DNA of 64,000 nucleotides, from positions 32,001-96,000 of the forward strand of contig CAWFGE010000011.1 in the NCBI GenBank assembly GCA_963815195.1, written 5' to 3'. Both the position numbers and the translations under genes were made by a program. Every line of letters begins with the position of its first letter. Positions within the stretch are counted from its first letter, which is position 1. The stretch comes from an uncultured Planctomycetaceae bacterium (GTDB lineage: Bacteria; Planctomycetota; Planctomycetia; Planctomycetales; Planctomycetaceae). Under the pieces are notes generated by a model. The model was not told the DNA's origin. It searched no databases and worked only from the letters and a program-made list of their open reading frames with translations. Positions 12,484 to 59,746 of the stretch are shown one piece after another.

Positions 12484-13062
12484 ATGCCTCATCGGAAAAC
12501 CGTTCGGCATTATCATGAACCGGGCCATCTCCATGAGTTCACTTTCTCCTGCTATCAACGTCGGCCATTGCTGACAAACGACGATTGGCGGGAAAAACTG
12601 GCCCGCTGTCTCGACCAGGCCAACCAGGAATACCGCTTTGAACTCGTGGCATTTGTGTTGATGCCCGAACACGTCCATCTCTTGACGTATCCCCTCGAAT
12701 TAGAACCAAACTTCGGGGGCTATCTTGCTCAAATCAAGCAGCCTTTCTCCAAGCAAATCAAACAGGTGCTCACCGAAAACCGGTCGCCGCTCCTCCAACG
12801 GCTGACCGTCCGGGAACGAAAGGACAAATACTGCTTTCGATTCTGGCAGGAAGGGCCGGGGTTCGACCGAAATCTATTCAGCAAGGAGGCGATCGTCGGT
12901 TCCATCAATTACATCCACGAGAATCCCGTCAAGCGAGGATTGTGCCAAAAAGCCACCGACTGGAAGTGGTCCTCGGCCCGATATTATTTGAATGAACCGC
13001 CCGGTCAACAGGAAGCCGATTTACCCTTGATCCACGGCCCTCCCATAGGCATGCTGGACTAA
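12484..13062 (+). CDS. REP-associated tyrosine transposase (RAYT / TnpA-REP, Y1 HUH)
   Basis: HEFTFSC, FVLMPEHVHLL (HUH), FWQEG, YIHENPVKRGL, DWKWSS; flanked by inverted GTGCCACTGGC..GCCAGTG palindromes. Confidence 0.92.
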   Translation: MPHRKTVRHYHEPGHLHEFTFSCYQRRPLLTNDDWREKLARCLDQANQEYRFELVAFVLMPEHVHLLTYPLELEPNFGGYLAQIKQPFSKQIKQVLTENRSPLLQRLTVRERKDKYCFRFWQEGPGFDRNLFSKEAIVGSINYIHENPVKRGLCQKATDWKWSSARYYLNEPPGQQEADLPLIHGPPIGMLD

Positions 13063-13348: not shown

Positions 13349-13900
13349 TTAATCATTGCTTTGGTGATAGCGGAAATCAAATGCTGCGAATGCAAAAAAA
13401 CCGTAAATTTCAGAAAGGATCAATGGAATAGTACAATTGGAAATTCGGCCAATATTCCCCTTGCCATAAACCCAAAGGCAAGGGGATTGAGTAGTCACGT
13501 CAGAATAGATTTCTCTCCCGAGACAATAAAGCCTCCACTCATTTTCAATAGAATTTGGAAACACAATTCGGACAACGTCTTCTTCCACATCCACATGGAT
13601 TGCACAAGAATTGAACATACTAACGATTTCTACTATTTCTGGATTGCTCGGTAGAGCTAATAGGTTCTTGAAATCGTCAAAAACCTTGCTATAGCCGCCA
13701 TTGGCCAGTTTTGGGACAACAGGCAAATCCTGAAGTTGACCTTTCATGACCTCCATATTTAGGAGATCATCTTTTGGGAGAGAGCAGGAATCAAAACCGC
13801 TAAATTGCTTAGATGATATGAGTGTGTTCCGAATAAACTCCACAGGATTCGGTTGGAGAAAATTTGCTTCCCATTCTGCAAAAAAATCATCGTCACTCAT
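13349..13900 (-). CDS. AT-rich hypothetical protein (REP-bounded cargo)
   Basis: 183 aa ORF with AAGGAGAG RBS; low GC; may continue by frameshift at the A7 run near 13395. Confidence 0.55.
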   Translation of the reverse strand: MSDDDFFAEWEANFLQPNPVEFIRNTLISSKQFSGFDSCSLPKDDLLNMEVMKGQLQDLPVVPKLANGGYSKVFDDFKNLLALPSNPEIVEIVSMFNSCAIHVDVEEDVVRIVFPNSIENEWRLYCLGREIYSDVTTQSPCLWVYGKGNIGRISNCTIPLILSEIYGFFAFAAFDFRYHQSND

Positions 13901-14004
13901 CTAAACTCTCCTTTACAACTGAGGTTATACTATACAAAAGCAACCTTCCTTGAGCATGTTTAATTTCCAACAAGCCAAGTAGGGTCCGCTGTGCGGACCG
14001 TTTT

Positions 14005-14216
14005 TTACTCCCCGGCGTCGGTGACTCTCGCCACGTTTTCGGGAACCGCCGCACCACATCCCCAATCGATGGGATAAACTCCCGCTTTCACCCAACGGTG
14101 AAATGATGAATACGGCCAATCCTTCGGGCATCTTACATAGCCATGTTTGACGGGGTTCCAATGAATATAGTCGAAATGGGCCTCGAAATCATCCTCATCC
14201 TCAATCGTGTGTTGCC
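14005..14216 (-). pseudogene. C-terminal fragment of a second RAYT
   Basis: WQHTIEDEDDFEAHFDYIHWNPVKHGYVRCPKDWPYSSFHRWV; no N-terminus or HUH motif; GTAGGGTCCGCTGTGCGGACC REP on both sides. Confidence 0.88.
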
Positions 14217-14927
14217 AGCCAAGTAGGGTCCGCTGTGCGGACCGTTTTTTACTCCCCGGCGTCGGTGACTCTCGGCGGGGTGGCACTGGCGGACCTTGTG
14301 TGCCACTGGCTCCGCCAGTGCCTTGGTGAAATGGTTGCGGGACTCAGGCTGGCTGATTTTCTGTTCCCCAAAAAACAGCAGACTTTGTCTCCGAAGCAAA
14401 ATGCGATGCCAGGCGAACTTTGTCCATCGTCTCAACAATTGTCTCAAAACCGCACTGGCAGAGCCAGTGGCACACTCGGCCCATCCGTCCGCCGCCCCGC
14501 AAAATCAACGTGTTCCTGCTCTTCGCTTGGTTCTCCGCTCCATCTCTAGCGGTTCTGACGGTCTGAGGGTTTCCGTCCGCCGTTGTTTCCGGGAATCAAC
14601 GCGGCGCTCGCGGATTTTGTTGACGGCCGGCAACTGGGGCCTATGTTTTCCTACCCTCTCAAAAACTGGCTCTCAGCATGCGGGCGGGGCACGTTCTGTT
14701 TTCAGAACACGCCCCGATCCCGCATGCGCGGGCCGTTCGTTCTGTTCGATGCGACCGGAGCGAACGCCTCCGCGAATTGTATTGATAAAACACCCGGTCA
14801 ACTCCGTCCGATTGTGGGGCGGTTGATCGTCTTCGAGCGTTCGCCTTCGCCCACACGAAGCGGGCCGCCCGAAAAATTCCCTCAATGATTTTGCAACTCT
14901 GATCCGCTAGAGCCAAAGAGAGGCATC

Positions 14928-45049: not shown

Positions 45050-45320
45050 CCAAGCAGCACTTTCATTGGGGCTGCGGTTTTTTTTGTTCTTTGGTTTCTG
45101 TCGTTATTTTGGAAAATCCGAAGCACGAGATTCGAAATCCGAAACAAATTCAAAATCCGAAATTCCAAGGCTCCAAACTCCGCCGCCGACGGTTTTCCGT
45201 TCGGGAAACGTCATCCTCGCTTGGGGTTTGGAAGATTGGAATTTCGGTCATTGGAATTTGTTTCGGATTTCGAGATTCGAATTTCGGATTGGAAAACTTC
45301 CGTGCAAAGCCGCGGCCGGT

Positions 45321-46666: not shown

Positions 46667-47229
46667 TCATTTACCCTCAGCACTTAGCAGTTTTTTTAAG
46701 GCCGCGAGCTCGGCTTCAACCTGGTCGGCCCGCGAGGCGTCGGCGTCGGCGTAATCCTCTTCGGGTTCCATTTCCAATTCGGCGGCCTGGTTTTCCAGCG
46801 TCAGGCCCTGTTCCAGGAGGCGGAGCTTGCGGCGAGCTTCCGTCAGCCGGGCTTCCAGGGCCCGCAGCATCGTCTGCAAGTGGTCGCGGGTCGCGATCGC
46901 GGCGGCGTGCTGCTGCTCCAGACCGGCGACGACATCTTCGATCTCCTGCTTGCGGACGAGGGCCGTCCGCGCCCGGCTTCGTTGCCTTTTTGGAGCTCCT
47001 CTTTCGCCTGGGCCATCCATTGGTCGGCCTGGGCCTGATGCTCCCCGATCTCGCGGTTCAGCCGGGCCACCGAACCGTTCGCCGTCGAGACGCTCCGCTT
47101 GGCCCCGGCCAGCCCTTCCTCCATTTCCCGCACAATCGTTTGAATCGCGGCTTTCGGATTGGATTCCTGCGACAGGATTTCCGTCAGGTTGCACGTGACG
47201 ATATCCGTCAATCGGCTGAAATAACTCAT
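46667..47229 (-). CDS. pspA: PspA/IM30-family protein, frameshift near 46975
   Basis: MSYFSRLTDIVTCNL, coiled coil, VEAELAALKK C-terminus. Confidence 0.8.
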
Positions 47230-47466
47230 CGAACAAAACCTCTCAACGAAACCCCACCGCCGGGCTTTAGTGATAAATTCTAAACCAGTGTGCGCGATTC
47301 CGGGCAGGAAAATCCGAAATTCGAATCTCGAAATCCGAAACAAATTCCAATGTCCGAAATTCGAATATCCAAACCCTGCGCGTGGACCTCTGCATCCAAG
47401 GATAACGTCTCAAATCCGTGTGCGGATCTGTATGTTTTTCTATCCACAATCCTCATTCCTCTATCC

Positions 47467-48066
47467 TCAATCCTCAACCGACTTCCGCGGATCGGAGACG
47501 CCGCGCTCTTTCAGTTTCTCCTGCAGTTTCTCCCGCGCGAGCCGCAGCCGGCTCTTGGTCGTGGGGAGCGAAGTCTCCATGACCTCGGCGACTTCGGGGA
47601 GCGACAGGCCCGCGTAATGGTGCAGCGTGAACGTCAGCCGCTGCTCTTCGGGGATCTCGTCCAACAGCCCATCCACAAGCTCCGCGAGTTCCCGCTGCCC
47701 CGCGTGAACGTCCGGCGGCAGGACTTCGCCGGCGAGCCGGGCCATCGCATCGGCCTGGTCTTTGTCGTGATGGCCTTTGACCGCCCGGATCAACGCATCA
47801 CGCGACTGCTTGCGGACGTTGTCGATCATCAAATTCCGCCCGATGCGGTACATCCAGCCCCGAAACCGGCCCTGCGGCAGATAGTCCCACGACTGGTCAT
47901 AAATCCGCAAAAGCGTTTCCTGCGCGAGATCCTCGGCCATTTGGGCATCCCGCGTGTTGCGGAAGAAAAACCCGATCAAAGGCCCTTGGTGCCGGTCCAT
48001 CAAGTCCCGAAACGCCCGCGGATCTCCTTCCTGGATTCGGACCATCAACTGATCGTCTTCCGTCAT
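47467..48066 (-). CDS. ECF RNA polymerase sigma factor
   Basis: AEDLAQETLLRI, FRGWMYRIGRN, TKSRLRLAREKL. Confidence 0.92.
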   Translation of the reverse strand: MTEDDQLMVRIQEGDPRAFRDLMDRHQGPLIGFFFRNTRDAQMAEDLAQETLLRIYDQSWDYLPQGRFRGWMYRIGRNLMIDNVRKQSRDALIRAVKGHHDKDQADAMARLAGEVLPPDVHAGQRELAELVDGLLDEIPEEQRLTFTLHHYAGLSLPEVAEVMETSLPTTKSRLRLAREKLQEKLKERGVSDPRKSVED

Positions 48067-48407
48067 GGGCGAAACTTCCCGAGTGGCGAGAACCGCACCA
48101 GCCCGGCGTTTTGGGCTGATGTTTTCTCCTCGATGAATAGATCTCAGCGGGCAAAGAGAACGGACGCAAAACCCGCGGCTGTTGACCGCGTGTTTCTGCT
48201 TTCTACTATAATACCTTTGGCTGAGAGCCGAAAGTTGAAAGAAACGGATTGGGTGGCGATCGCAAAGACCACGCCCTTCGTTCCTCAGGGACGTGCCACC
48301 CGTGCCACCCAAGTTCCTGTCTACTTTTGTGGAACACACTCTGTTTTAAACGTCAATCCCTTCACGTTTCATGGAAAAGGCTGTTTGTGTCGTTGGCGAA
48401 TTTGCGG

Positions 48408-49620
48408 ATGGTGAGCGTTCCGTATGGAACCCGAAAAGAGTTTTCCTGCGAGATCGATGCCTCGCGGATTATCGAAGTGGCTCCCAGCCCCCGGCCCCAT
48501 CCGGATTTGGCGAGCCAGCTTCGGCAGGCGCTGGCGTGCCCGCTGGATTATCCGCCGCTCGCGCGGTCGGTGATTCCCGACGACCGCGTCGTTTTGGCCC
48601 TCGACCGCGAAACGCCCCAGGCGAAGGAACTGCTCGCCGGCGTCTGGGCCGACCTGGAAAAAGCCGGCGTCCGCCCCCAAGACGTGACCCTGCTCCAGCC
48701 CGCCCCTCGATCTGGATCGCCTTTTTTGGAGGCTGCCGAGATTCTGCCGCATCCGGAGATGATTTCCGTGGTGCATGCCCCGGCGTCCGAGGACGATTGC
48801 CGTTATTTGGCCTCCACGGTCGGCGGCGAGCGGATTTATCTGGCCAAGGAACTCCTGGAAGCCGAGGTCGTGATCACCATCGGCCCGATCGCGTTCGATG
48901 CGGTGATCGGCTACCGAGGCACGAACAGCGTGTTCTATCCCGGCCTGTCGTCGCCCGCCGCCAAAGTCAAAGCCGCGGGCCAAGGGCACCGGGAGCTCGG
49001 GCCCGAGAACGACCGCCCGCTCCGGCAGTTGATCGATGAAGTCGCCTGGCTGTTGGGCTCGCAGTTTTCCGTGCAGGTTGTGCCTTCGCTGTTCGGCGGC
49101 GCGGCCCATGTGCTGGCCGGGCAATCGGACGCCGTGCTCCGCCGGGGCAAGGAACTCATCAATCAGCATTGGCTGGTCGAGTCTCGATTACCGGGCGGAG
49201 ATCGTGGTCGTCGGCGTGGAAGAAGACGCCGCGGGCCACGGCTGGACGCAGATCGGATCGGCCCTCGCCGCCGCGCGGAGCCTGGTCTCCAAAGGCGGGC
49301 GGATCGTGGTGCTGTCGGACGTGAACGTGCCGCCCGGCGAAGGCCTCAAAATGCTGATGCGCTACGAAGACGCGACCGAAGGCCTGCGCCCGCTGAGGCA
49401 GGCGGCTCCCGAAGATTTGATTCCCGCGACCGAACTCGCCGAGGCCGCGGATTGGGCCGACGTGTACCTCTTAAGCCGGTTGGACAGCGACCTCGTGGAA
49501 GACCTGTTCATGGCCCCGTTGGAATCCGAAGCCGAGGTCAAACGCCTGTTGGGCCTCGATGAGCAGGTCCTGTTCCTCCCCTCCGCCCAACACCGCTTCG
49601 GCCGCATCCGCGAGCGGTGA
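48408..49620 (+). CDS. Lactate racemase (LarA) domain-like protein, frameshift near 49185
   Basis: QALACPLDYPPL, VIGYRG...FYPGLS, VSKGGRIVVLS. Confidence 0.65.
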
Positions 49621-49684
49621 GAAACACCCGGCGAGGGAGAGCCGTAGAGTGGGCACCAGTGGGCACTCTACTTGCTGCTGGAAA

Positions 49685-49754
49685 GCACCGGCAACAAGTT
49701 GCCAGTGGCACCCGAAAGACTCTTAACAATAACCCGGACTGACAGTGCCACCCC
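49685..49754. repeat. REPIN homologous (inverted) to 11953-12029
   Basis: gcaccggcaacaagttgccagtggcacccgaaa...actgacagtgccacc. Confidence 0.85.
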
Positions 49755-51555
49755 GCCGCGTTGATCGACCAGCCAGCCCTCATCGAACAGGTTGAGGAAC
49801 GGCTTCCACACGTTGGGGTGGGCTTTCTCGGCTTCGTCCAAGAGGAACACCGCGTAGGGGTCGGCGTTGAGTTCGTTGACCAGCCGACCGCCTTGGTCGT
49901 GGCCCACGTAGCCCGGCGGCACGCCGATGATCCCCGACACCGTGTGCGGCTCGGTGAAGTTGCCCATCGAGTACACTTGTAATCGACCCGTGGCCGAGTA
50001 CAACCGGGCCAGGGCCTTGGCCAGTTCCGTTTTGCCCACGCCCGTCATCCCGGCGAACAGCAGCACCGAGGCGGGGCGGTCCGGTTCGGTCAGGCCGGCT
50101 TTGATCAGCTTGAGTTCGGTGGCCACGACCTCGACGGCCTCCGCCTGACCCACCACCGAAGCCTTGAGTGCCGCTTCGTAATCCGCCGAGCCGCCATCGC
50201 CGGAGAGCGTTTCGACCGGCACGCCCGTGAGTTCGGCGACCACCCGCACCACATCCTCGGCCCGCACCCGGTTCTCGTCCGCCGATGCTCTGAGTGCGGG
50301 CGAAGCTGACGTTCTCACAAGCCCGTCTCAGAATTTTTTCCGCCTTGGCCGGATGCCGTTCGCTGAGCACAAACGCCGAGGCCAGCGCCACCGTGCGTCT
50401 GGGCACATCGTCATCCAGTCGCACTTGATGCTCGCGTTCGAGTTCGTCTCGCTTCGCTTCCAGAAACGCCAGGCTCTCCTCATCGCTGGGCTCATCGATT
50501 TCGATGCGGGTGATGAGGTCCGAAAGCCCGGCATCGCCAGCCAGGAGGTCTTGATATTCCCAAGTCGAGAGACTGCCGATCAATTGCAATCCCGACCGCG
50601 TGAGCACCGCCCGCAGAAAGGCCAGGTTATCGGCGGAGCGTTTGAGGAGCGGACCCAAGCCATCCAGACACAGCACCAGATTCTCCCAATCCCCCACCTC
50701 ACGGACGATTCGCTCCAACACCGCCCGCCCATCTTCGGGCGGCACACTCGAACAATCCAACCGCAAAAACCGCTTGTCGGCCAGAAACGGATACCGCCCC
50801 TCCGCCGCCCGCCGCGCCAGTTCCCGAAGCACCACCGTCTTGCCCACCCCCTTATCCCCGGTCACCACCACATGCTTCGCCTCCCCCCGAAACAGCGACC
50901 GAGCCATCTTCTCATACACATCCCCCTGGGCAAAACTCCGCTCCATCGCCGCCGGCAACCCACCCGACAAAGCCAAAAACGTCAAATCCTCCGCCCCCAA
51001 TGCTTGCCGCATCACCGGCGAAAGCCGCTCCGTCCAATCATCCACCGAAGTGCGTTTCCTCCGCCTCATTGCCGGTTTCTTCTTCCCCCTGCTCAAACTC
51101 CACCTGAAACGGCAACTTCTCAAACACCTGCTTCAAGAAATGCGGCGCCTCCGCCAAAACCGCCGCCCAAAGATGCTGCGGTTCGATCTGTGATCTGCAT
51201 CGTTCTCCGCAAACTCGAAGGCCGTCACTAACACCCGCTGCACATCCTCCGTCAGGAAGTTGCGTGATAGTTCTAACGGTTTCCGTGGTGTTTCCTCGGC
51301 TCCAACGACCTCCTTCAGTTTCGCCGTGAGTTCTTGAACTGCCTCAGCATTGTCACCCTCACTCGGCTGATCGATCATTGAGAGCAGCAACGCGCTGAGG
51401 CCAATTTGCGCATGGCCTAATTGTTCGGCTTGGATCAACGACTTTTCGATAATGAGCCATGCCGTTTCGCCGAACAAATCTTCTGACAAGGCGACTGATC
51501 CACCAGGAAACAGCGTATCCGAAGGAATCTCGTTATTTACATCAACAGTGGACAT
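49755..51555 (-). pseudogene. ClpA/ClpB/ClpV-type double AAA+ ATPase, 3'-truncated, ~3 frameshifts
   Basis: Clp-N-like repeats, GDKGVGKT, GMTGVGKTELAKALA, GVPPGYVG, LLDEAEKAHP; similarity stops at GWLVDQRG where the REPIN begins. Confidence 0.85.
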
Positions 51556-51717
51556 ATTCGTATATTCCCGAAAGATAAGAGGATTTCATTCCCATATTGC
51601 TATCTAATGGTTTGTCGATGTCCCACCATGCTCGATTCATCCCCTTGTATTGTGCCATTTATCTCGCACAGCAACCTCCCCAAACACTGGCCGTCAACAG
51701 TAGCAATGATTTGACGT

Positions 51718-52518
51718 TCACAGGAAAATCAGATTCTCAGCCTTTAACGTGTCAAAAACAGCTTGGCGCTGATTATCAGAAACTTCCCAGAGCTTGACTC
51801 GCTCATCGATTTCCTTCAATGTTCCGCGTGAAGGGTCTGCCTTGATCCATTCCTCCAAACGCTTACCCTCCACATTACCATCGAGTTGATACGACGTCAG
51901 AAAATTCCACGGATAAACATCTCGAAGAATACCCTTCTTATAAACCTCGTTAGGTATGGCGTTATATCCCCATCGCGAAATTCTGAGACCCTCAGCATCT
52001 CTCTCTTTTTCTATCTCCGGTGAAGGATCTGGAGAGCGATATTTATTCAATCCCACTGCATACAAAACTGGCCCTAAACTGTGAGCACGAGCGTAACCAA
52101 TCCCATAGCATGGCTGGAGCTTCTCGCAGATCGTATGTGCAAATTCAGTCAACAATGTGTCTTCGAAATTCAAAAACGTCTTTCGAACTCCAAACGTGAA
52201 GTACGACTCCTCGCGAAGGTCTAAATCAGCCGTCGCCTCCCAATCTGAAACAGGTATCTTACCACCAGGAGTCATACGATAAATCGATATTCCTTCGACA
52301 TTACTTATGCCAGTACGTTGGAGCCTAGGATGGATTCGTTGAAATGAGCCTGGTCGTCCGGAAAAGCCCGTGCCGGTGACAGCAAGTTTGTCCGGCCCTA
52401 GTCCAAGTCTGGAAAAAAAATCAAGCAGAGCGTGATAAAATGATGTGACTGGCTTTGCACGCTTGCGCAATCCATAGAAAGCAAGCGCCACACACTCATC
52501 AGAAGCTTCATCAATCAT
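51718..52518 (-). CDS. Putative immunity protein
   Basis: Starts ~20 bp after the toxin stop with AAGGA RBS; low GC; GILRDVYPWNFL...LEEWI...LWEV. Confidence 0.6.
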   Translation of the reverse strand: MIDEASDECVALAFYGLRKRAKPVTSFYHALLDFFSRLGLGPDKLAVTGTGFSGRPGSFQRIHPRLQRTGISNVEGISIYRMTPGGKIPVSDWEATADLDLREESYFTFGVRKTFLNFEDTLLTEFAHTICEKLQPCYGIGYARAHSLGPVLYAVGLNKYRSPDPSPEIEKERDAEGLRISRWGYNAIPNEVYKKGILRDVYPWNFLTSYQLDGNVEGKRLEEWIKADPSRGTLKEIDERVKLWEVSDNQRQAVFDTLKAENLIFL

Positions 52519-52539
52519 GCTTTTATCCTTTCTCAAATT

Positions 52540-54176
52540 TCAAATTGGATCGCGGTCCAAGACCCGAATCTCACCCTGTTTGTCATCTGGCAATCGCTGC
52601 ATTTCGCTAGATAATCTTGATCGAAGTTCTCGAGCTGTATCTCCTTCCGACAAAACTTCCCAGGCATCAACTTTGCCATCACATCTAATGCCGATAATGT
52701 CTGGGCGGAAGCCTGAGGGATTTTCACGGCCTGTTGCGGTCCGCCAAGCCAAATCCATTGTCAAATACTGATACTTTCCAGTTTTGGCTTGTTCTTCCGC
52801 AATCCGCCGCACGGTTTCCGCATGTGGATTTAGTCCCGTGGTTTCGTCATCAGATCCAGTTTCTTGAGCTTCTCCGTAAACAAAGACTGGGCCCTTAGAA
52901 CTGTAGTATACTTGCGCACCAAATCCAGTTCGATAAACTATGTCAAAACCACTGTCGCATTCATTGTCCAATTCGCACTTTTCAGCGATCGCTTCTGCCA
53001 AAGCGTAGACGGCCTCCACAAGCGTTCGATACATGCGAGATTTTTCTTTGCCGATTCCCTTTGTGAGTCGTATATTATCGTAGTCTCGTTCCGCATGTTC
53101 GACTGCATCCTTCTCACTCTGAACTTTCTTTTTGCATTTTGCGGACATCCCATCCCAATCCTTGGTCGGACTGGCCTTAATCCAGATCGTCCCGCCTTTA
53201 TCAATCCAGACTGTGGCGAGTTGCTTCTTCGCACGAGCCGTTTTCGCAAAGACTTTATCATCGGATTTTATCCCAAACTTTGCCCCAACAGCTTTGACAA
53301 CTCTCTCAATCGGTGAGAACACAGCTTCCACAAGCTTTTGCAGAAGTTCGTCTGCTTTTTTCTCTAGGCCGCCGAGAGCTTCGCTGATCTTTCCAGGTAA
53401 GTCAGCGATCTGCGCAATTTTCGCAATGAATTTGAAAATGGGAACCAATGTGTCCGAAAGCCCCTGTTCGACCTTTGTCGCGATGGTGCCAACCGCCTTA
53501 CCGGTGACGACATCATCGACCGTTTCCACAAACTTATTCAGCAAGCATCTCAGGCCGGGACAACTTTCAAGGAAGCCGGCGATCACATCCAGAATCAAAA
53601 GAATCCAACCGGCTCCCGGAACGGCCTTGACCAACAGCTTCGTGACCAGTTTGGCGATGAAGCCCGGGAGGATGTCGGTAATAACGTTTGTGAACAGGGA
53701 GCCAATGTTTTCTTCCAACTTTTGTGGTAGCTGCTGCAAATACTCAAATGCCTTGTCGGCCCATGTCCCCAGAATATCCTTGATCCAATCAATACCGGCG
53801 TCAATCCCTTTATCGGCAAACTCTTGCAAAGCCCCTGCCGCTGACATGAAAAATCCGATAGCGCCCGGCAGGATCTGGTCAGCCTTGGAACGCACGTTTT
53901 CAAACGTCCAACCCAGAGTGTCGGCAAGCACCTTCACAAGCCCAAGGAAATTGAATTTTGGATAAATGGCATTAACGAAGCCTTGAAAATCAATTTTATC
54001 CAGCTTCGTCCATTTCTTGAGGGCGTTTCCGAGTCTCTTGAAAAACTTATTTGGATCCTTAAATCGCTCGAATCCCTGTCCTACGCCTTCGGCAAGGGTC
54101 TGAAAAGCCTTTTGGCTGCCGCCAAAAATCAAATCGAGCAGTTTCGATCCGGCATTGGCACCATCTGTAAGTTTTT
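52540..54176 (-). pseudogene. 5'-truncated polymorphic toxin: helical delivery-type domain plus putative PD-(D/E)XK nuclease tip
   Basis: Frame is open into the REP at 54177 with no convincing start; amphipathic helical region; C-terminal RPDIIGIRCDGKVDAWEVLS. Confidence 0.65.
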
Positions 54177-54224
54177 GTAGGGCAGGCTCCCGCCTGCCTT
54201 TTTCCGTTATTTGGCAATCGTCAA

Positions 54225-56002
54225 CCCGGATTATTCATCAGGTCCGTGCGTGGTGAGTATTTCCGTGGCGGAAAGTGCACAGGGTGGTTGGGGAGCGGAG
54301 GATGGGCGGACCGCCCCCTTTCCCCCTGGGGCCTGGCGATCGTTGGGTGAGTGAAGGAAAGAAACAGAAAGGCGGATGCCACGATGGCGAACTGCTCAGT
54401 CCCGAAGAACCAGTTGCTCATGGGCGTGACGTGGGAGAGGTGTGTAGGGCCGCGGGCGAGCTCCACGCGGACGTGGCCAGAGGTTGGCCAGACGCAGCGA
54501 TCGGATGCGGGAAGACATCGCGGCCCAAAACGCGCTCACGCTTTCCTCAATGTAAATCACGAGGCGGCGGGAGTGCTTCACGACCCGCGCTCCTGTCCGC
54601 AGCACCGACTGCTGGAAACGATGCAAGTCCCAGCAACCGCCCAACTCGTCCTCGAACTCGATCCGCAGCATCGACGCCAGGTTGAACGCCAGCAGGCCCA
54701 ACAGCAACGTCACTTCGTTCTCCGCAAACACCGATGACGAAAGACGGCAGCCAATCACCGCGTTGAATTCGCCCAGCCGGTCCTCGAACGTGCCGCGCTT
54801 GCGGTAGTGCGACAACACCTCATCCGCCGAGCGTTGCTCCTCGGTCCAGTTTGTGATCAGGAAGAAGTAACGCGGAAACAGAGCCAGTTGGCCCGTCTTC
54901 GCCTCCGGCTTGTCGACGATGACCAGAATCACCCGCTGCGGATGACGCCAGCCCTCGGCTTGGTACTTTCCGAGTTCGATCACGTCCTCATATCCCCCTT
55001 TGGGCGGCCGGCCCGCGGGACGTGTCAGATAGGGCGCGGCCATCTCTTCCAGCACGTTGTTCTTCTTGATTCTCCCGCAAAAACGGATGTTTTCGTCGGT
55101 CAACTCATCCAACACCGGGCCGGCGATGAAACCCGCATCGATCCGGAGGTCGAAGCTCCACGCCAGTTGCCGGGCCTTGCCGACCACGTTGCGAATAAAC
55201 CGCCGGATGCCATTGGCCGTATGCACGCTGCCTTGCCGCAGGATGGCATGAATGAAGCCGTTCCCCAGCCGCTGGCCTTCCCGCGCGCTATCGTAGTCGC
55301 CGCCGACCGAGAAACTAGCGACCAGCGGATGATAGACGGTCTCCTTGTAGTAACCGTTGTAGCGGGCCCCCGGCTGCTGGCCATAAACCTGCATCGGGAA
55401 ACTGTCGATGTCGATGGTGGCGTAGCGGACGCGGCGGTCGCTGTCGCCGGTGCTTTTGATGTGCCGATGGATCCAGTCGAACAAGGCGCTCCGCACGGCC
55501 TCGAGATTCGTCTTGCAGTCGGCCAGCCAATCGATGAGCCGGGATTGGGTGGGTTGGCTGGCCAGGCGTTGGTTGAGCACTTCTTCGCCGGGCCGGTCCC
55601 AGGCGGCCATCTTCATGGCGGGATCATGGGCGAGCCGGTCGAGATCATCCTGATCGGACTCTCCCAGGGCCATGGCGTAGATTCTTTCCCGCAGCAGTTC
55701 GACGCCTTGATAGCGGACGCGGTCTTGCCGGCGAGGATCGATCAGTCGATCGGCAAGGGATTCGGTGAGTCCGAGCCGATGATCGAAGTCCCGCAGCAGA
55801 ACGGCACCGGAGTGTGACGTGAGCCGCCCATCGACGGCCTTGACCTTGATGGAACGATTGAAATCGGGCTCGAAAATGTTAGGCTGAGCTTCACCCATCG
55901 CGTGATTCCTCCGTATGGTGTTGGGATTGCATATAACACTTAAACGCAGAGGGTCACGCGATGGTTCCTTCTTTTTTCAGCTTTTTTGGTGAATAATCCG
56001 GG
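54225..56002 (-). mobile_element. IS1380-family insertion sequence, 1778 bp
   Basis: 13-bp TIR cccggattattca / tgaataatccggg; 5-bp TSD GTCAA at 54220-54224 and 56003-56007. Confidence 0.92.
54396..55898 (-). CDS. IS1380-family DDE transposase
   Basis: LTSHSGAVLL, LASQPTQSRL, IDIDS, YHPL, RIDAGF, YRKRGTFEDRLGE. Confidence 0.92.
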   Translation of the reverse strand: MGEAQPNIFEPDFNRSIKVKAVDGRLTSHSGAVLLRDFDHRLGLTESLADRLIDPRRQDRVRYQGVELLRERIYAMALGESDQDDLDRLAHDPAMKMAAWDRPGEEVLNQRLASQPTQSRLIDWLADCKTNLEAVRSALFDWIHRHIKSTGDSDRRVRYATIDIDSFPMQVYGQQPGARYNGYYKETVYHPLVASFSVGGDYDSAREGQRLGNGFIHAILRQGSVHTANGIRRFIRNVVGKARQLAWSFDLRIDAGFIAGPVLDELTDENIRFCGRIKKNNVLEEMAAPYLTRPAGRPPKGGYEDVIELGKYQAEGWRHPQRVILVIVDKPEAKTGQLALFPRYFFLITNWTEEQRSADEVLSHYRKRGTFEDRLGEFNAVIGCRLSSSVFAENEVTLLLGLLAFNLASMLRIEFEDELGGCWDLHRFQQSVLRTGARVVKHSRRLVIYIEESVSAFWAAMSSRIRSLRLANLWPRPRGARPRPYTPLPRHAHEQLVLRD

Positions 56003-56196
56003 GTCAATCAATAGAAAATAGAAGGCAGGCAGGAGCCTGCCCTACTCGCCTGCCTTTTTCCGTTATTTGGCAATCGTCAATCAATAGAAAATAGAAGGCA
56101 GGCAGGAGCCTGCCCTACTCGACTGTTCCTCCCCTCCGCCCAACACCGCTTCGGCCGCATCCGCGAGCGGTGAGAAACACCCGGCGAGGGAGAGCC

Positions 56197-56259
56197 GTAG
56201 AGTGGGGATCGCCCACCATTATTTGGTCGAGAACCATTGGTGGGCGATGCCCACCCTAC
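56197..56259. repeat. GTAG-type REPIN
   Basis: gtagagtggggatcgcccacc and inverted ggtgggcgatgcccaccctac. Confidence 0.8.
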
Positions 56260-56548
56260 TTACCTTGCAAATGGACGCGACCGCGTTGCCCGCGAAGCCT
56301 GCGAGGATGCAGGCCAGCCAGAGATTCGAGAGGCCGCCGCCGGTGAGGAGGTCGGTGTAAGCGCGGGTCAAGCCGCAACCCGGGCAGGCGTGGAATGTCG
56401 CCTGGACCGGGCAAGACCAGCCGGCCAGCGGAACCAGAGCGCGGAGCCCGGCGTACATCGTCCAGAGAACGAACGGCAGATTGTAGCCTATGACAATCCG
56501 CCACGCGCGCCGCTTCGGGCTAACGCTTGAGCTCGTTTCCCTCGGCAT
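56219..56548 (-). CDS. DUF2752-family membrane protein
   Basis: CP....HACPGCGLTRA motif, next to a TM2 gene. Confidence 0.75.
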   Translation of the reverse strand: MPRETSSSVSPKRRAWRIVIGYNLPFVLWTMYAGLRALVPLAGWSCPVQATFHACPGCGLTRAYTDLLTGGGLSNLWLACILAGFAGNAVASICKVSRVGIAHQWFSTK

Positions 56549-56735
56549 CCTTCATTTTTCCCATGAGGATCATGATGAAGTCGATCAGGGCCCAAACTCC
56601 GCAGCCGCCCAGCGTGAGAAGCTTCAAGACGCCGAGGCCCGTGTAGCCGAGGTAAAACCGGTCCACGCCCAATCCGCCGAGAAAGAAGGACAACAATGCC
56701 GTCGTCGTAAAGTCCCGTTGCTTCAGTTCATTCAT
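56520..56735 (-). CDS. TM2-domain protein
   Basis: LLSFFLGGLGVDRFYLG...KLLTLGGCGVWALIDFI. Confidence 0.92.
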   Translation of the reverse strand: MNELKQRDFTTTALLSFFLGGLGVDRFYLGYTGLGVLKLLTLGGCGVWALIDFIMILMGKMKDAEGNELKR

Positions 56736-56909
56736 CGTGAGAGGCTCCTGTTGCGAGAGGGGAAAGCAAGAAAGGCGGCCGTCGAAAGGTTCTTCATCAA
56801 GAACGGAAGGCATTCTGCCCCAAGCGTTACTGATTGTCAATTGTCCCGTGCTGTGCAGCTTTTGAGTTTCAACAGCCGACACCCCCCGGCGTGCAAGTTC
56901 TGCGTATCT

Positions 56910-58544
56910 TCACCGCCTGGGCCGGGTGAGCCATTCTTCCAGGGTGGGCAGGTTGGCTTGGATCAGGCTTTTGCCGGCTTTCCAGAATTGCTTGGCCAGC
57001 CGCTCCACGCGGTGGGCTTTGAGTTCCTTATGCAAGGTGCGGAGCAGCGAGCACGCGCGGGCGTTGTCCAACAGGGGCGTCATCGCGGGCAGAAGGGACT
57101 CGTCCACGCCGAATTCCCGATTCCGGGCCACGTCCGCGCACACCGGAACCACGCCGACGAGCGCGCTGGCAAACTGCTCGGCGTTGTAGCGGACGGCCTC
57201 GCGAATGTTGACCTCCTTCGGCCGGCTGCCGGACTGCCAATCGTAAGGCGGCGACCATTCCATCACCGGGCTGAGCAAATCGATGTGCGTCAACACGCCC
57301 AGCACCGGCACGGGCTTGAGCTCTTTACGCACCTCGAACCAGGCCCTGAGCGTTTCGAGCATTTCCCGGTCCGGCTCGCGGGCGGGGCTGTTGGCGTTCA
57401 TCACGAACAGCACCAAATCCGCGTCGCGGAGGGCCTGCTTGGTTTCTTCGAGTTGCTTGATTGTCGCGCCGTCCGCGGCGTAGCCCACCGTGTCGAGCAA
57501 GGTCAGATGGTCGTCGGCTTCCTCCCAGTCCAGCCGATACCGCGCGACCTCGCTGGTCGCCGGGAGAATATCCGTCTTGGCCTGTTGATCGCCCAGGATC
57601 GCATTGATGAGACTCGATTTCCCGGCTTTCGTTTGCCCGACCAAAGCGATCGTGACTTCGGTGCGTTGTTCCTCGTCCGGTGCCTGTTGTCCGTTGTCGG
57701 GTGGGTTTGTTTTTTCGTCGGGCTTTGGAGCGGTCTCCGTGACCGGGGGGCTGACACCCCCCGCTCGCCTTTCCCGGGCTTCCATCTTCTTGAGCGTTTC
57801 GCGGAAGCGGTCGGCGCCGCCGGCGAGCCGGCCGCTGTTGAGTTCGATGGCATAATAACCCACGCGTTCGATGAACATGATCGTGAACCACGCGAGCACG
57901 TTGGACTGGATGTCGCGCGTGACGGGGTTGACGACAAAATGCGACGCCGCGTACCGGGCGACCACGGTCTGCGGAGCCAGAATGGCGGAGATCGGCCAAT
58001 AGAACTTCGAGAGCGTGTTCGACCACTTGGGGATTTTCGCGAGATGCCGATAGTGGTTGACGGTCATGAGATGCGACGCGGGCACATAGTCGTCGACAAG
58101 TTCCGCCAGATCCTCAAACACCAGTTCCAAAGCCGCGAGGATTTCGGGAATGGTGAGTTGGCTGACCGGGTCCTTGGCTTTGGGATGGTACACGTGGGCG
58201 ATCTCCAGGGACAACTGCGTCGCGGTGTCCACGTAGAATTGGATCCGCGTCAAGTCGTCCGGCGGGATTTGCCCCAGGGATTTCGAGCGTTCCAGGACGA
58301 GCTTCCACGCGGCCTGGTCGCGGGGCGTCCAATGCATGGGAATCTCGCTGCTGACGTCGGGCGGGGCGAAATACTTCTTCCACCAGCGGAGCAAAAAAAA
58401 CGCGAGCCCCCAGCACACCGGCCAGGGCACCCATAGCCAGGTGTACCAGCCGTACTTCCAGAGCGCCCAAGTGCCCACGGCCATATAAGCCAAGATCGGC
58501 AACAACAACAGCACAAGGACGACGAGCGAACGCCAGCGGCTCAT
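56910..58544 (-). CDS. Membrane-anchored Era/YeeP-like GTPase
   Basis: GQTKAGKSSLIN, LLDTVG, LTHID; two N-terminal TM helices. Confidence 0.85.
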   Translation of the reverse strand: MSRWRSLVVLVLLLLPILAYMAVGTWALWKYGWYTWLWVPWPVCWGLAFFLLRWWKKYFAPPDVSSEIPMHWTPRDQAAWKLVLERSKSLGQIPPDDLTRIQFYVDTATQLSLEIAHVYHPKAKDPVSQLTIPEILAALELVFEDLAELVDDYVPASHLMTVNHYRHLAKIPKWSNTLSKFYWPISAILAPQTVVARYAASHFVVNPVTRDIQSNVLAWFTIMFIERVGYYAIELNSGRLAGGADRFRETLKKMEARERRAGGVSPPVTETAPKPDEKTNPPDNGQQAPDEEQRTEVTIALVGQTKAGKSSLINAILGDQQAKTDILPATSEVARYRLDWEEADDHLTLLDTVGYAADGATIKQLEETKQALRDADLVLFVMNANSPAREPDREMLETLRAWFEVRKELKPVPVLGVLTHIDLLSPVMEWSPPYDWQSGSRPKEVNIREAVRYNAEQFASALVGVVPVCADVARNREFGVDESLLPAMTPLLDNARACSLLRTLHKELKAHRVERLAKQFWKAGKSLIQANLPTLEEWLTRPRR

Positions 58545-59746
58545 GGAGTGTCGCCTCCCTCGTGGTGCTTCTTCCAAAGCTCGCGCGCTGCGGCGGTTTG
58601 CTCCCGCATGACTTGTTGCAACTCCTCCCGCGTCGGGGCGTGGCCCATCAATTTTTCCCCATAGTACCAGCAGCAGCCCCGCCCCAGGGCATAAGTCGCC
58701 CCAAACGCGAGCGCTGCGTTCGCGGCCAGGCCGACGCCGGGCACGATCTTTAACGTCTCGCGAATGACCTGTCGCAGCGCCAATCGGCTGCTGACGGCCC
58801 CGGCCATTTGAAAGAACTGCTTCGAATCAAAATGCTGCCCGTAAAGGGCCGCGATCCGGCGGATCAATTCGGACTGCACACCCATCACCACGGGGATGTC
58901 GATCCAAGGCACGGGCACCGCCGCCGCCGACGCCGCCATCGTCGCCGCGCTCAACACGTAAGGCATCGCCCGCTCTTCGTGCAAATCCTTGAGGGAATCC
59001 ATCACGTCGGTCATCGTCAAAAACGTCTGCCGATATGCATCGGGCAAGCGGCGGACGAGCGCGGCCTTCAAGCGGTCGCCGCCGAAGTTCGGCTCGGCAA
59101 AGCCTTCCTCCGGTTTGGTCAGATCGACGGGCACGATCTCGTCCGCCAGTCCCGAAAACCGCCGGGATTGCTCCTGCAAACTGCGGCGGAGATCGTCGGG
59201 CACGGCGTCGATGTCCGTGAAGCCGTCGGTTTCCGCGACATCGAACGGATCGGGCTTCGGATGCTGCTGTTGGGGATACAAATCGTGGAGGCAAGTCAGG
59301 ACGAGAACCACCGGCCGCGTGGGTTTGGCTTTGCGGATTTTTTTGAGCGGTCCCACGACGGAATCGAGCGCATGGTCGGCAATCCGGGCGGTGACGATCA
59401 TCAAGTGCGCGGATTGATCGCTGGCTTCGATGTCGTCGGCGGGATCGTACCGGCTTTCGCCGATGCCCCGCGTGTCCAGAAATTCCAGGATGGGGCTCTC
59501 TGCGCTGGGAAAGGCATACCGGCGGGAGAACCGCGTCTCGGGGCGAAAGCCCGTGCCGATCTCGGCGTCCTCGGCCCCGGTGAGGAACCGGATCACCGAC
59601 GTCTTCCCGCTGCCGGTTTTGCCGAACAGCCAAAACACGGGCACGGGGCAGCGTTCGAGCAGCTTGCCCCGTTCGCGTTCAAAATGTTCGGACTGGAATC
59701 TGCGCAATAGCCGGTCTTGAAACCAGCCGCGCACCGAATCAAACAT
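58541..59746 (-). CDS. GTPase with C-terminal YcjF/DUF697-like domain
   Basis: GKTGSGKTS, FLDTRG, AAAVPVPWIDIP...IAALYG; ATGA overlap with next gene. Confidence 0.85.
   Translation of the reverse strand: MFDSVRGWFQDRLLRRFQSEHFERERGKLLERCPVPVFWLFGKTGSGKTSVIRFLTGAEDAEIGTGFRPETRFSRRYAFPSAESPILEFLDTRGIGESRYDPADDIEASDQSAHLMIVTARIADHALDSVVGPLKKIRKAKPTRPVVLVLTCLHDLYPQQQHPKPDPFDVAETDGFTDIDAVPDDLRRSLQEQSRRFSGLADEIVPVDLTKPEEGFAEPNFGGDRLKAALVRRLPDAYRQTFLTMTDVMDSLKDLHEERAMPYVLSAATMAASAAAVPVPWIDIPVVMGVQSELIRRIAALYGQHFDSKQFFQMAGAVSSRLALRQVIRETLKIVPGVGLAANAALAFGATYALGRGCCWYYGEKLMGHAPTREELQQVMREQTAAARELWKKHHEGGDTP

Follow-up and report, generated by a model that had tools for sequence, protein, structure and literature searches.

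How does a block of foreign DNA come to lie within a perfect duplication of a host gene end when it carries no integrase? The question is raised by a 6.5-kb island behind a larA-like gene of an uncultured Planctomycetaceae bacterium (contig CAWFGE010000011.1), whose cargo genes are severed where they meet repetitive extragenic palindromic (REP) elements. The window analysed here is a stretch of 64,000 nucleotides (C11:32001-96000 of an 8.87-Mb genome in 25 contigs; C-numbers below are contigs of that genome), and copy counts refer to searches of the whole assembly. We propose, with a probability of roughly two in three, that the island arose through strand transfer by a tyrosine transposase that is associated with REPs (RAYT) and rolling-circle-type fill-in, the target being duplicated by replication. 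The first-pass annotation of this locus lacked three points that are, in our view, needed to account for it: the joins use set dinucleotides at a constant offset from the REP foot, the enzyme is probably a RAYT working in trans, and the pattern recurs throughout the genome.

Structure of the island and its joins

The island is bounded by two copies of an 84-nt direct repeat, 100% identical, with no third copy in the genome, and these enclose 6,469 bp. As first annotated, the repeat covers the 3' end of the larA-like gene (its last 51 nt) and stops within a REP element, 10 nt into a GTAG REP; the identity of the copies supports the recent event that had been suggested. The larA-like gene scores below the cut-off of the NCBIfam racemase models. 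Read on the minus strand, the insert consists of a REPIN (REP doublet forming hairpins) with an IS1380-family insertion sequence, a toxin gene cut at its 5' end, an intact gene of 266 amino acids, a Clp-like ATPase gene cut at its 3' end and a REP fragment (Table 1).

Neither a recombinase nor a rolling-circle transposase belonging to the unit was found among the ten frames scanned with Pfam, ARAGORN detected no tRNA in the window, and Rfam gave no match within 47000-59000. The reported lack of a recombinase and a tRNA was thus borne out, and the tyrosine or serine recombinase with an attachment site in a tRNA gene that marks integrase islands and integrative and conjugative elements is missing. 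What the locus does have is the make-up of an insertion with long target duplication, namely a unique duplication of more than 30 bp and an insert below 20 kb with no integrase or tRNA. A promoter scan gave no signal (4 sites versus 3.0 expected).

Table 1. Features of the island, the intact RAYT gene of the window and related duplications (positions without a contig number are those of the window)
Feature	Position	Strand	Basis or remark
larA-like host gene (Lar_N)	48408..49620	+	Pfam; last 51 nt inside left repeat
Left 84-bp duplication copy	49570..49653	+	Perfect repeat
Putative hairpin-collapsed remainder of resident REPIN	49654..49671	+	Three colinear blocks; unique in genome
Family A (GTG[GC]-type) REP element fragment	49673..49758	-	96.6% to C13:939412-939498; ends at CG
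Clp-like two-AAA ATPase gene, 3' part lost at CG	49757..51555	-	Pfam and paralogue comparison
Cognate immunity gene, intact, 266 aa	51718..52518	-	Homologues cover 98%; tip gene upstream
Polymorphic toxin gene, 3' part only	52540..54171	-	Cut at CT adjoining REPIN
GTAG REPIN B1, interrupted by IS1380	54170..56124		CT-bounded on both strands (AG 54170-54171, CT 56123-56124)
IS1380-family element (DDE_Tnp_1_4, 500 aa)	54225..56002	-	5-bp target-site duplication GTCAA; passenger
Right 84-bp duplication copy	56123..56206	+	Starts with CT shared with REPIN end
Resident GTAG REPIN, family Y, intact	56197..56259		Repeat comparison
Intact RAYT gene between family A REPs (C11:44.5k)	12487..13062	+	NF047646, 99.7-99.8 bits, cut-off 80
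Sister insert	C4:69108/73008		191-202 bp repeat, 3.7 kb; CG at incoming REPIN, CT at resident REP
Sister insert	C6:145393/146963		229 bp repeat, 1.3 kb
Sister insert	C15:388053/389369		65 bp repeat, 1.25 kb
Sister insert	C23:42687/43948		455 bp repeat, 0.8 kb
Sister insert	13973-14030 / 14217-14274 (C11:45973/46217)		58 bp repeat; CT at one end, CG at the other
Cargo-free tandem duplication	C12:179525		314 bp; CT inside gene to CT behind resident REPIN
Cargo-free tandem duplication	C15:180578		114 bp

Three of the four joins fall on a CT or CG, 4-5 nt from the foot of a REP. At the right join the REPIN ends in CTAC, four bases and CT, and it is with this CT (56123-56124) that the right repeat begins. 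The toxin gene is joined at a CT of the other strand (AG 54170-54171), 5 nt outside the second GTAG. The Clp-like gene stops at CG 49757-49758, where a GTGG-type REP has its foot 5 nt away and where other copies of this family A element also end; an uninterrupted 90% paralogue at C15:323171 continues past the point. The annotation was right that the cargo begins within the Clp gene and ends within the toxin gene, but its boundary elements had to be redrawn. What it placed at 49685-49754 as a REPIN is a family A fragment with two heads on the same strand, not an inverted doublet. The toxin join lies at the AG given above instead of at a REP at 54177; that REP is no separate element but the left arm of a single REPIN (B1). 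A 73-bp tandem copy, with its join at CT 56050-56051, precedes the far end of B1, and this far end forms the right junction. Inverted doublets are present at 54177/56118 and 56197/56259, the latter being the resident family Y REPIN, which likely drew the enzyme to the larA target.

REPIN B1 is found at four other genomic places, where its neighbours differ; one of these also has the tandem copy, together with a RAYT gene that breaks off at the CT of the REPIN. The tandem form recurs at C20:246919-247092 with 2 mismatches in 174 positions, within a mosaic (L014, C20:243000-247400) of IS1380, low-GC frames, a 5' piece of a RAYT gene, two B1 copies and a second RAYT gene cut at the CT of the REPIN.

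At the left join, the 18 nt that follow the repeat match the resident REPIN at 17 of 18 positions on its top strand and, on the bottom strand, at 18 of 18; among 300 shuffles the best reached 15, and one of 18 other family Y heads also reached 17. This suggests that the left repeat runs through the entire resident REPIN but leaves out its hairpins, the outcome expected if newly made DNA had switched template. A 22-bp hairpin element was ruled out as the source, the left-join sequence being unique in the genome. The earlier picture of a slice delivered between REPs agrees with the clean CT join on the right; with an apparently template-switched REPIN copy on the left, it is too symmetric.

A different mobile enzyme might have built the island, either IS1380 through one-ended transposition or the IS110 recombinase of the genome. 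An IS1380 does lie inside it, one of 13 full copies in the genome and the only one within a REP, IS110 genes are present (5 matches), and IS621 has a CT core. Yet the target-site duplication of IS1380 flanks the insertion sequence alone, inside the REPIN, so the element bounds neither a composite nor a one-ended transposon and did not make the island, as had been recognized at the outset. Three related duplications described below (on C6, C11 and C12) have no IS1380 match, and the IS110 copies belong to other repeat families and have none of the A, B, C or Y heads close by. On the position of the target-site duplication, these related events and the IS110 contexts we rejected both agents, whose involvement we regard as extremely improbable.

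The cargo shows what was taken. The toxin frame is open right up to the REPIN, and relatives identified with phmmer (345 matches; domains scanned in 17 of 150) have 89 to ~700 extra residues upstream; a different search for longer relatives returned 0 among 7,994 candidates, whereas phmmer did find them. Since the middle region of the protein aligns to residues 480-960 of eCIS_core proteins, its start is missing, and with it the N-terminal delivery region, the gene being severed at the REPIN. The tip (~residues 405-544) is also carried by RHS, PT-HINT, eCIS_core and RTX-repeat proteins and has conserved PD..E..S residues, so we take it to be nuclease-like. The 266-residue protein has 18 matches counting itself, most with 98% coverage. 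Of 22 homologous loci, 15 have 300 nt or more of upstream DNA; because the same tip lies directly upstream in 10 of these 15, we assign the gene as the cognate immunity gene; judged by these homologies, the tip and the 266-residue protein are a polymorphic toxin-immunity pair. A TsiV/DUF3396-like label for this protein (Atlas) lies below the recognition threshold and is a weak lead only.

Neither the toxin nor the immunity gene has a second copy in the genome, and their GC content is 0.46-0.49 versus 0.60, so the slice is foreign; the 5'-cut toxin gene and the 3'-cut Clp gene show that it was cut without regard to gene limits. The net outcome would be the gain of one intact immunity gene with the end of the host gene kept. 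Two loci on C15 match the Clp part at 90% identity, and both have an Rhs gene followed by an intervening gene ahead of them; for this reason the donor was probably a close relative whose locus has the order Rhs gene, intervening gene, Clp gene.

Clp-like two-AAA ATPases of ~600 residues stand behind Rhs or toxin loci three times in the genome (L012:6648-8534, L013:6955-7962 and L063), the order in L063, read off translations, being Rhs-like gene, small gene, RAYT-like gene, open reading frame and Clp. The Clp family was considered as a general toxin partner and discarded, as it has other neighbours elsewhere and 0 of 22 such loci match this toxin or immunity protein.

Dinucleotides at REP elements across the genome

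The GT[AG]G foot with its hairpin is repeated genome-wide, with 284 heads in family A, 49 in B, 58 in C and 19 in Y. We aligned the outward 300 nt of these 410 heads to the genome. Alignment ends peaked 4-5 nt from the REP head, with 52 ends at 0-6 nt and 21 at 7-13 nt, compared with an average of 4.5 in each 7-nt interval from 14 to 97 nt. Flanks with an uninterrupted second copy numbered 49 in families A, B and C, leaving out families D-F (3 rows), alignments below 50 nt or 85% and partners that end at a REP. The canonical site was present in 46 of them and shared by the second copy in 39 of the 46, with homology stopping 0, 1, 2 and 3 nt beyond it in 20, 10, 6 and 3 cases. The background frequencies of the dinucleotides are 4.6% for AG and 11.2% for CG. 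Since the letters beside the shared dinucleotide are mixed (22 CG and 15 AG cases), the shared unit is two letters long.

Cutting at C|C by family A was rejected, as just 7 of the 22 uninterrupted copies have a G adjoining the CG. Of 283 family A heads, 165 have a CG 1-2 nt ahead of the GTG[GC], and one may speculate that a guide ending in CG explains the family A joins. Flanks below 52% GC make up 43% in family B and 38% in family C, compared with 0% in D and E and 4% in random DNA; DNA within 300 bp of these REPs makes up only 1.9% of the genome. Across 20 REP-rich stretches of two congeners (G001 and G003), the second copy shares the site in 8 of 13 rows, which are not independent. In one congener, REPINs of families A, B and C form a dense array whose spacers have 50% GC (L025, G001:C25:154000-164000).

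Five sister inserts were picked by eye from 101 isolated repeats and 32 rows, the majority being CRISPR arrays, REP-in-REP mosaics or ordinary repeats. In each of the five the duplication is near-perfect and at least one of the two joins has a REP site (Table 1). The cleanest is that on C4, where the end of ribA is restored. The insert within the window carries a 186-bp foreign RAYT gene fragment that has no DNA match elsewhere in the genome and 76% amino acid identity to the C12 RAYT. Two tandem duplications lack cargo altogether.

An account that dispenses with a transposase bears on these same data. Replication forks may stall at REP hairpins, the nascent strand switching template through microhomologies of 2-5 nt, copying foreign DNA and duplicating the target. 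The left join does show switching at hairpins, and two of the sister events have far joins off REP sites with short microhomology. Microhomology, however, allows any letters at any offset, whereas in each REP family a single dinucleotide, at a constant distance, serves for the joins. Moreover, the hairpin families D, E and F, with 110 heads, yield 3 rows against 49 for A, B and C, and low-GC flanks are absent from D and E. We consider this explanation quite unlikely.

A proposed RAYT reaction and the evidence that weighs on it

Excerpts of two papers describe TnpA-REP as cutting single-stranded DNA at C|T, whether 5' or 3' of the REP and at distances above 400 nt, and joining the 3' C to the T (PMC3333891; PMC8266576). 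The genome has full-length RAYT frames at C12:908.8k (164 bits), C11:44.5k and C13:353k (95.5 bits), of which the first two are flanked by cognate REPs of families C and A, respectively. The joins were probably made by a RAYT acting in trans, and the C11 gene is a candidate for the CG joins. A low-GC orphan frame lies between REPs 3' of this gene (13349-13900).

The enzyme step, the order of events and the single-stranded intermediates of our proposal are inferred. REP ends would first have been joined to a foreign toxin-immunity-Clp locus at the CT in the toxin gene and the CG in the Clp gene, setting the limits of the slice. A RAYT bound at the resident REPIN behind larA would then nick the same strand at C|T, 74 nt upstream, and the 3'-OH of the incoming REPIN (the C of its own CT) would attack the 5'-phosphotyrosine link to give the right join. 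The host 3'-OH would prime strand-displacement synthesis, recopying the 84 nt and slipping through the REPIN hairpins, and the recopied strand would be joined to the 5' end of the incoming strand to give the left join. The scheme corresponds to the amplification model for bacterial interspersed mosaic elements (BIMEs) of Ton-Hoang et al. (PMC3333891, Fig. 7B, as excerpted) with a foreign strand interposed. By our analysis the Fig. 7B steps (nick, 3'-OH extension, cut of the new strand and rejoining) would yield the C12 duplication exactly.

The RAYT-made joins could instead have arisen on a free circle carrying the 84-nt piece of larA, the direct repeat resulting from a later RecA crossover of the Campbell type. 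The final sequence would be identical, it is common for REPs to bound fragments of genes that the genome also has at other places (pieces of IS1380, RAYT and Clp), and single-stranded circles are part of the published model (PMC3333891, Fig. 7A, in the portion cited). The exact later target would, however, have to be captured each time, with homology of 58-84 bp in three cases, while the cargo-free tandem duplications require no circle. In addition, the altered copy of the resident REPIN stands on the left, where fill-in predicts new DNA. We judge the circle unlikely.

Several observations weigh against RAYT strand transfer with fill-in. A clean CT join is missing on the left. The 46 flanks are not independent, as they include tandem units, shared partners and paralogues at 85-90%, and alignments passing the site share it by construction, so the real evidence is the position of the peak; seven of the 46 break before the site. 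The C6 and C15 inserts have far joins off REP sites, and the C23 insert, with its upstream join one base off the rule, fits less well. In the REP-rich congener stretches no clean duplication of a host gene was found. The RAYT gene beside a family B REP (C10:219k) is truncated. The guide rule for GTGG, as given in excerpts of PMC8266576, yields CC or CA and not CG, and a mobilome study reports, in the part cited, no REPIN circles in its strain (10.1101/2024.07.17.603846).

The donor and the ancestral state also argue on this side. The search for an intact donor locus that the annotation had recommended found none in the genome or in relatives, and no DNA match to the toxin or immunity gene is listed among 40 relatives (7 candidates per genome scored). 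Three congeners have no island behind larA, but their neighbouring genes there also differ, and larA and the genes downstream of the island sit on separate contigs. No empty or excised allele was found, no same-species genome being available for comparison.

The island or its repeats might also be a chimera of long-read assembly or a collapse of two strains. Run X1 carries the organism at depth 2-4, and among its listed short-read contigs none bridges a junction, which counts against our proposal as well. The assembly is in 25 contigs, and the Clp-like gene has frameshifts near 51180, 51070 and 50310. The larA-like gene has a one-base frameshift near 49180, not seen in two congeners, that is either real or a long-read error. 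Since the 12 other IS1380 copies vary by 0-5 gap openings per 1.8 kb (~1 indel per 1.8 kb), the frameshifts in both genes may be sequencing errors. Certain contig ends have sequence in common: contexts of insertion sequences and REPs are shared by C1 and C21:249000-251500, and by the starts of C19 and C20, possibly through contig-end overlap or strain variation. An assembler, on the other hand, would not set breaks on family-specific dinucleotides at several loci. Four listed X1 contigs match the cargo (151-279 nt, depth 2-3.3) and several match the flanks at similar depth (3-4.4), all with 0 differences, an agreement that is not independent if X1 is itself the source sample. An artefact is, in our estimation, very improbable.

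Relation to known systems and further observations

In their GT[AG]G foot with hairpin, inverted doublets, C|T joins and tandem amplification by nicking, extension and rejoining, the elements resemble the REP/BIME/REPIN-TnpA-REP system as portrayed in excerpts of PMC3333891 and PMC8266576. That BIMEs would capture genes or fragments of genes was predicted in 2012, and amplified codA-cynR and partial tnpA-REP copies were shown (PMC3333891, in part). Unlike in these accounts, the cargo here is of kilobase size and foreign instead of neighbouring, it is interposed in a target duplication of 58-455 bp, and a second family (A) joins at CG, a footprint known from genome sequence alone. With a size limit (<20 kb), a unique duplication (>30 bp) and no integrase, the island likewise resembles the insertions with long target duplication of Furuta et al. 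(PMC2853133), whose repeats, in the passages cited, often span a start or stop codon so that the gene stays whole, as here. Their cargo is restriction-modification genes, unlike the toxin tip, immunity and Clp genes of this island; these passages leave the mechanism open, suggest a double-strand break and do not mention a REP-linked dinucleotide.

A further comparison is with rolling-circle capture. IS91, ISCR and Helitron elements combine HUH chemistry with one precise and one loose end and carry gene fragments as cargo. The present unit differs from them in having no transposase, interchangeable REP ends and a long target duplication. They are named in the cited part of PMC3333891. As in acquired interbacterial defence (AID) and recombinase-associated (rAID) clusters, immunity genes are gained without a whole cognate toxin; those clusters, as excerpted (10.1101/471110), form arrays with mobile elements or an associated recombinase, whereas here slices that ignore gene limits are scattered at REP sites.

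BIME capture of gene fragments and inserts with long target duplications are thus already known, and what appears to be new is the kilobase foreign cargo, the long target duplication at REPs and the CG sites. In the literature covered, which included few subscription papers, we found no report of REP-linked foreign inserts with long duplications or of a CG site. According to the part cited of a 2022 preprint, no study has linked REPIN function to RAYTs beyond cleavage of REP DNA (10.1101/2021.07.10.451892), and the 2012 excerpts state that the in vivo mechanism and frequency of TnpA-REP activity were unknown (PMC3333891). The island, if our proposal is true, would give these long-puzzling enzymes a role in gene capture. 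The natural products preserved in this genome are base-exact and range from tandem duplications without cargo up to the 6.5-kb insert; they fit one nick-extend-rejoin reaction. A new RAYT cut site, C|G, is predicted, and the proposal would supply a candidate mechanism both for certain insertions with long target duplication and for the integrase-free spread of orphan immunity genes. A wider version, possible but doubtful, is that REP-RAYT would be a general DNA-capture system of this planctomycete lineage, in which two RAYT clades (CT and an undescribed CG clade) sample foreign, largely toxin-immunity, DNA and install it beside resident REPs with a long duplication sparing the host gene; the gain of immunity genes would then be what benefits the host and maintains these non-jumping transposases.

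Some features lie apart from the island. Short-period AT-rich repeats, direct and inverted, occupy 45111-45290 and 47307-47379 of the window and belong to a family unlinked to it. CRISPR-like arrays with two repeat types are found at C14:99700-103300, C18:150-5300 and the starts of C3 and C1. A 44-bp direct repeat at C12:519362 and 528480, 9.1 kb apart, resembles a tRNA 3' end and probably marks an ordinary integrase island. At C20:123400-126100 (L018), frames of SMI1/KNR4, an AHH nuclease fragment and DUF7674 are separated by REPINs and make up a small array of immunity-type genes.

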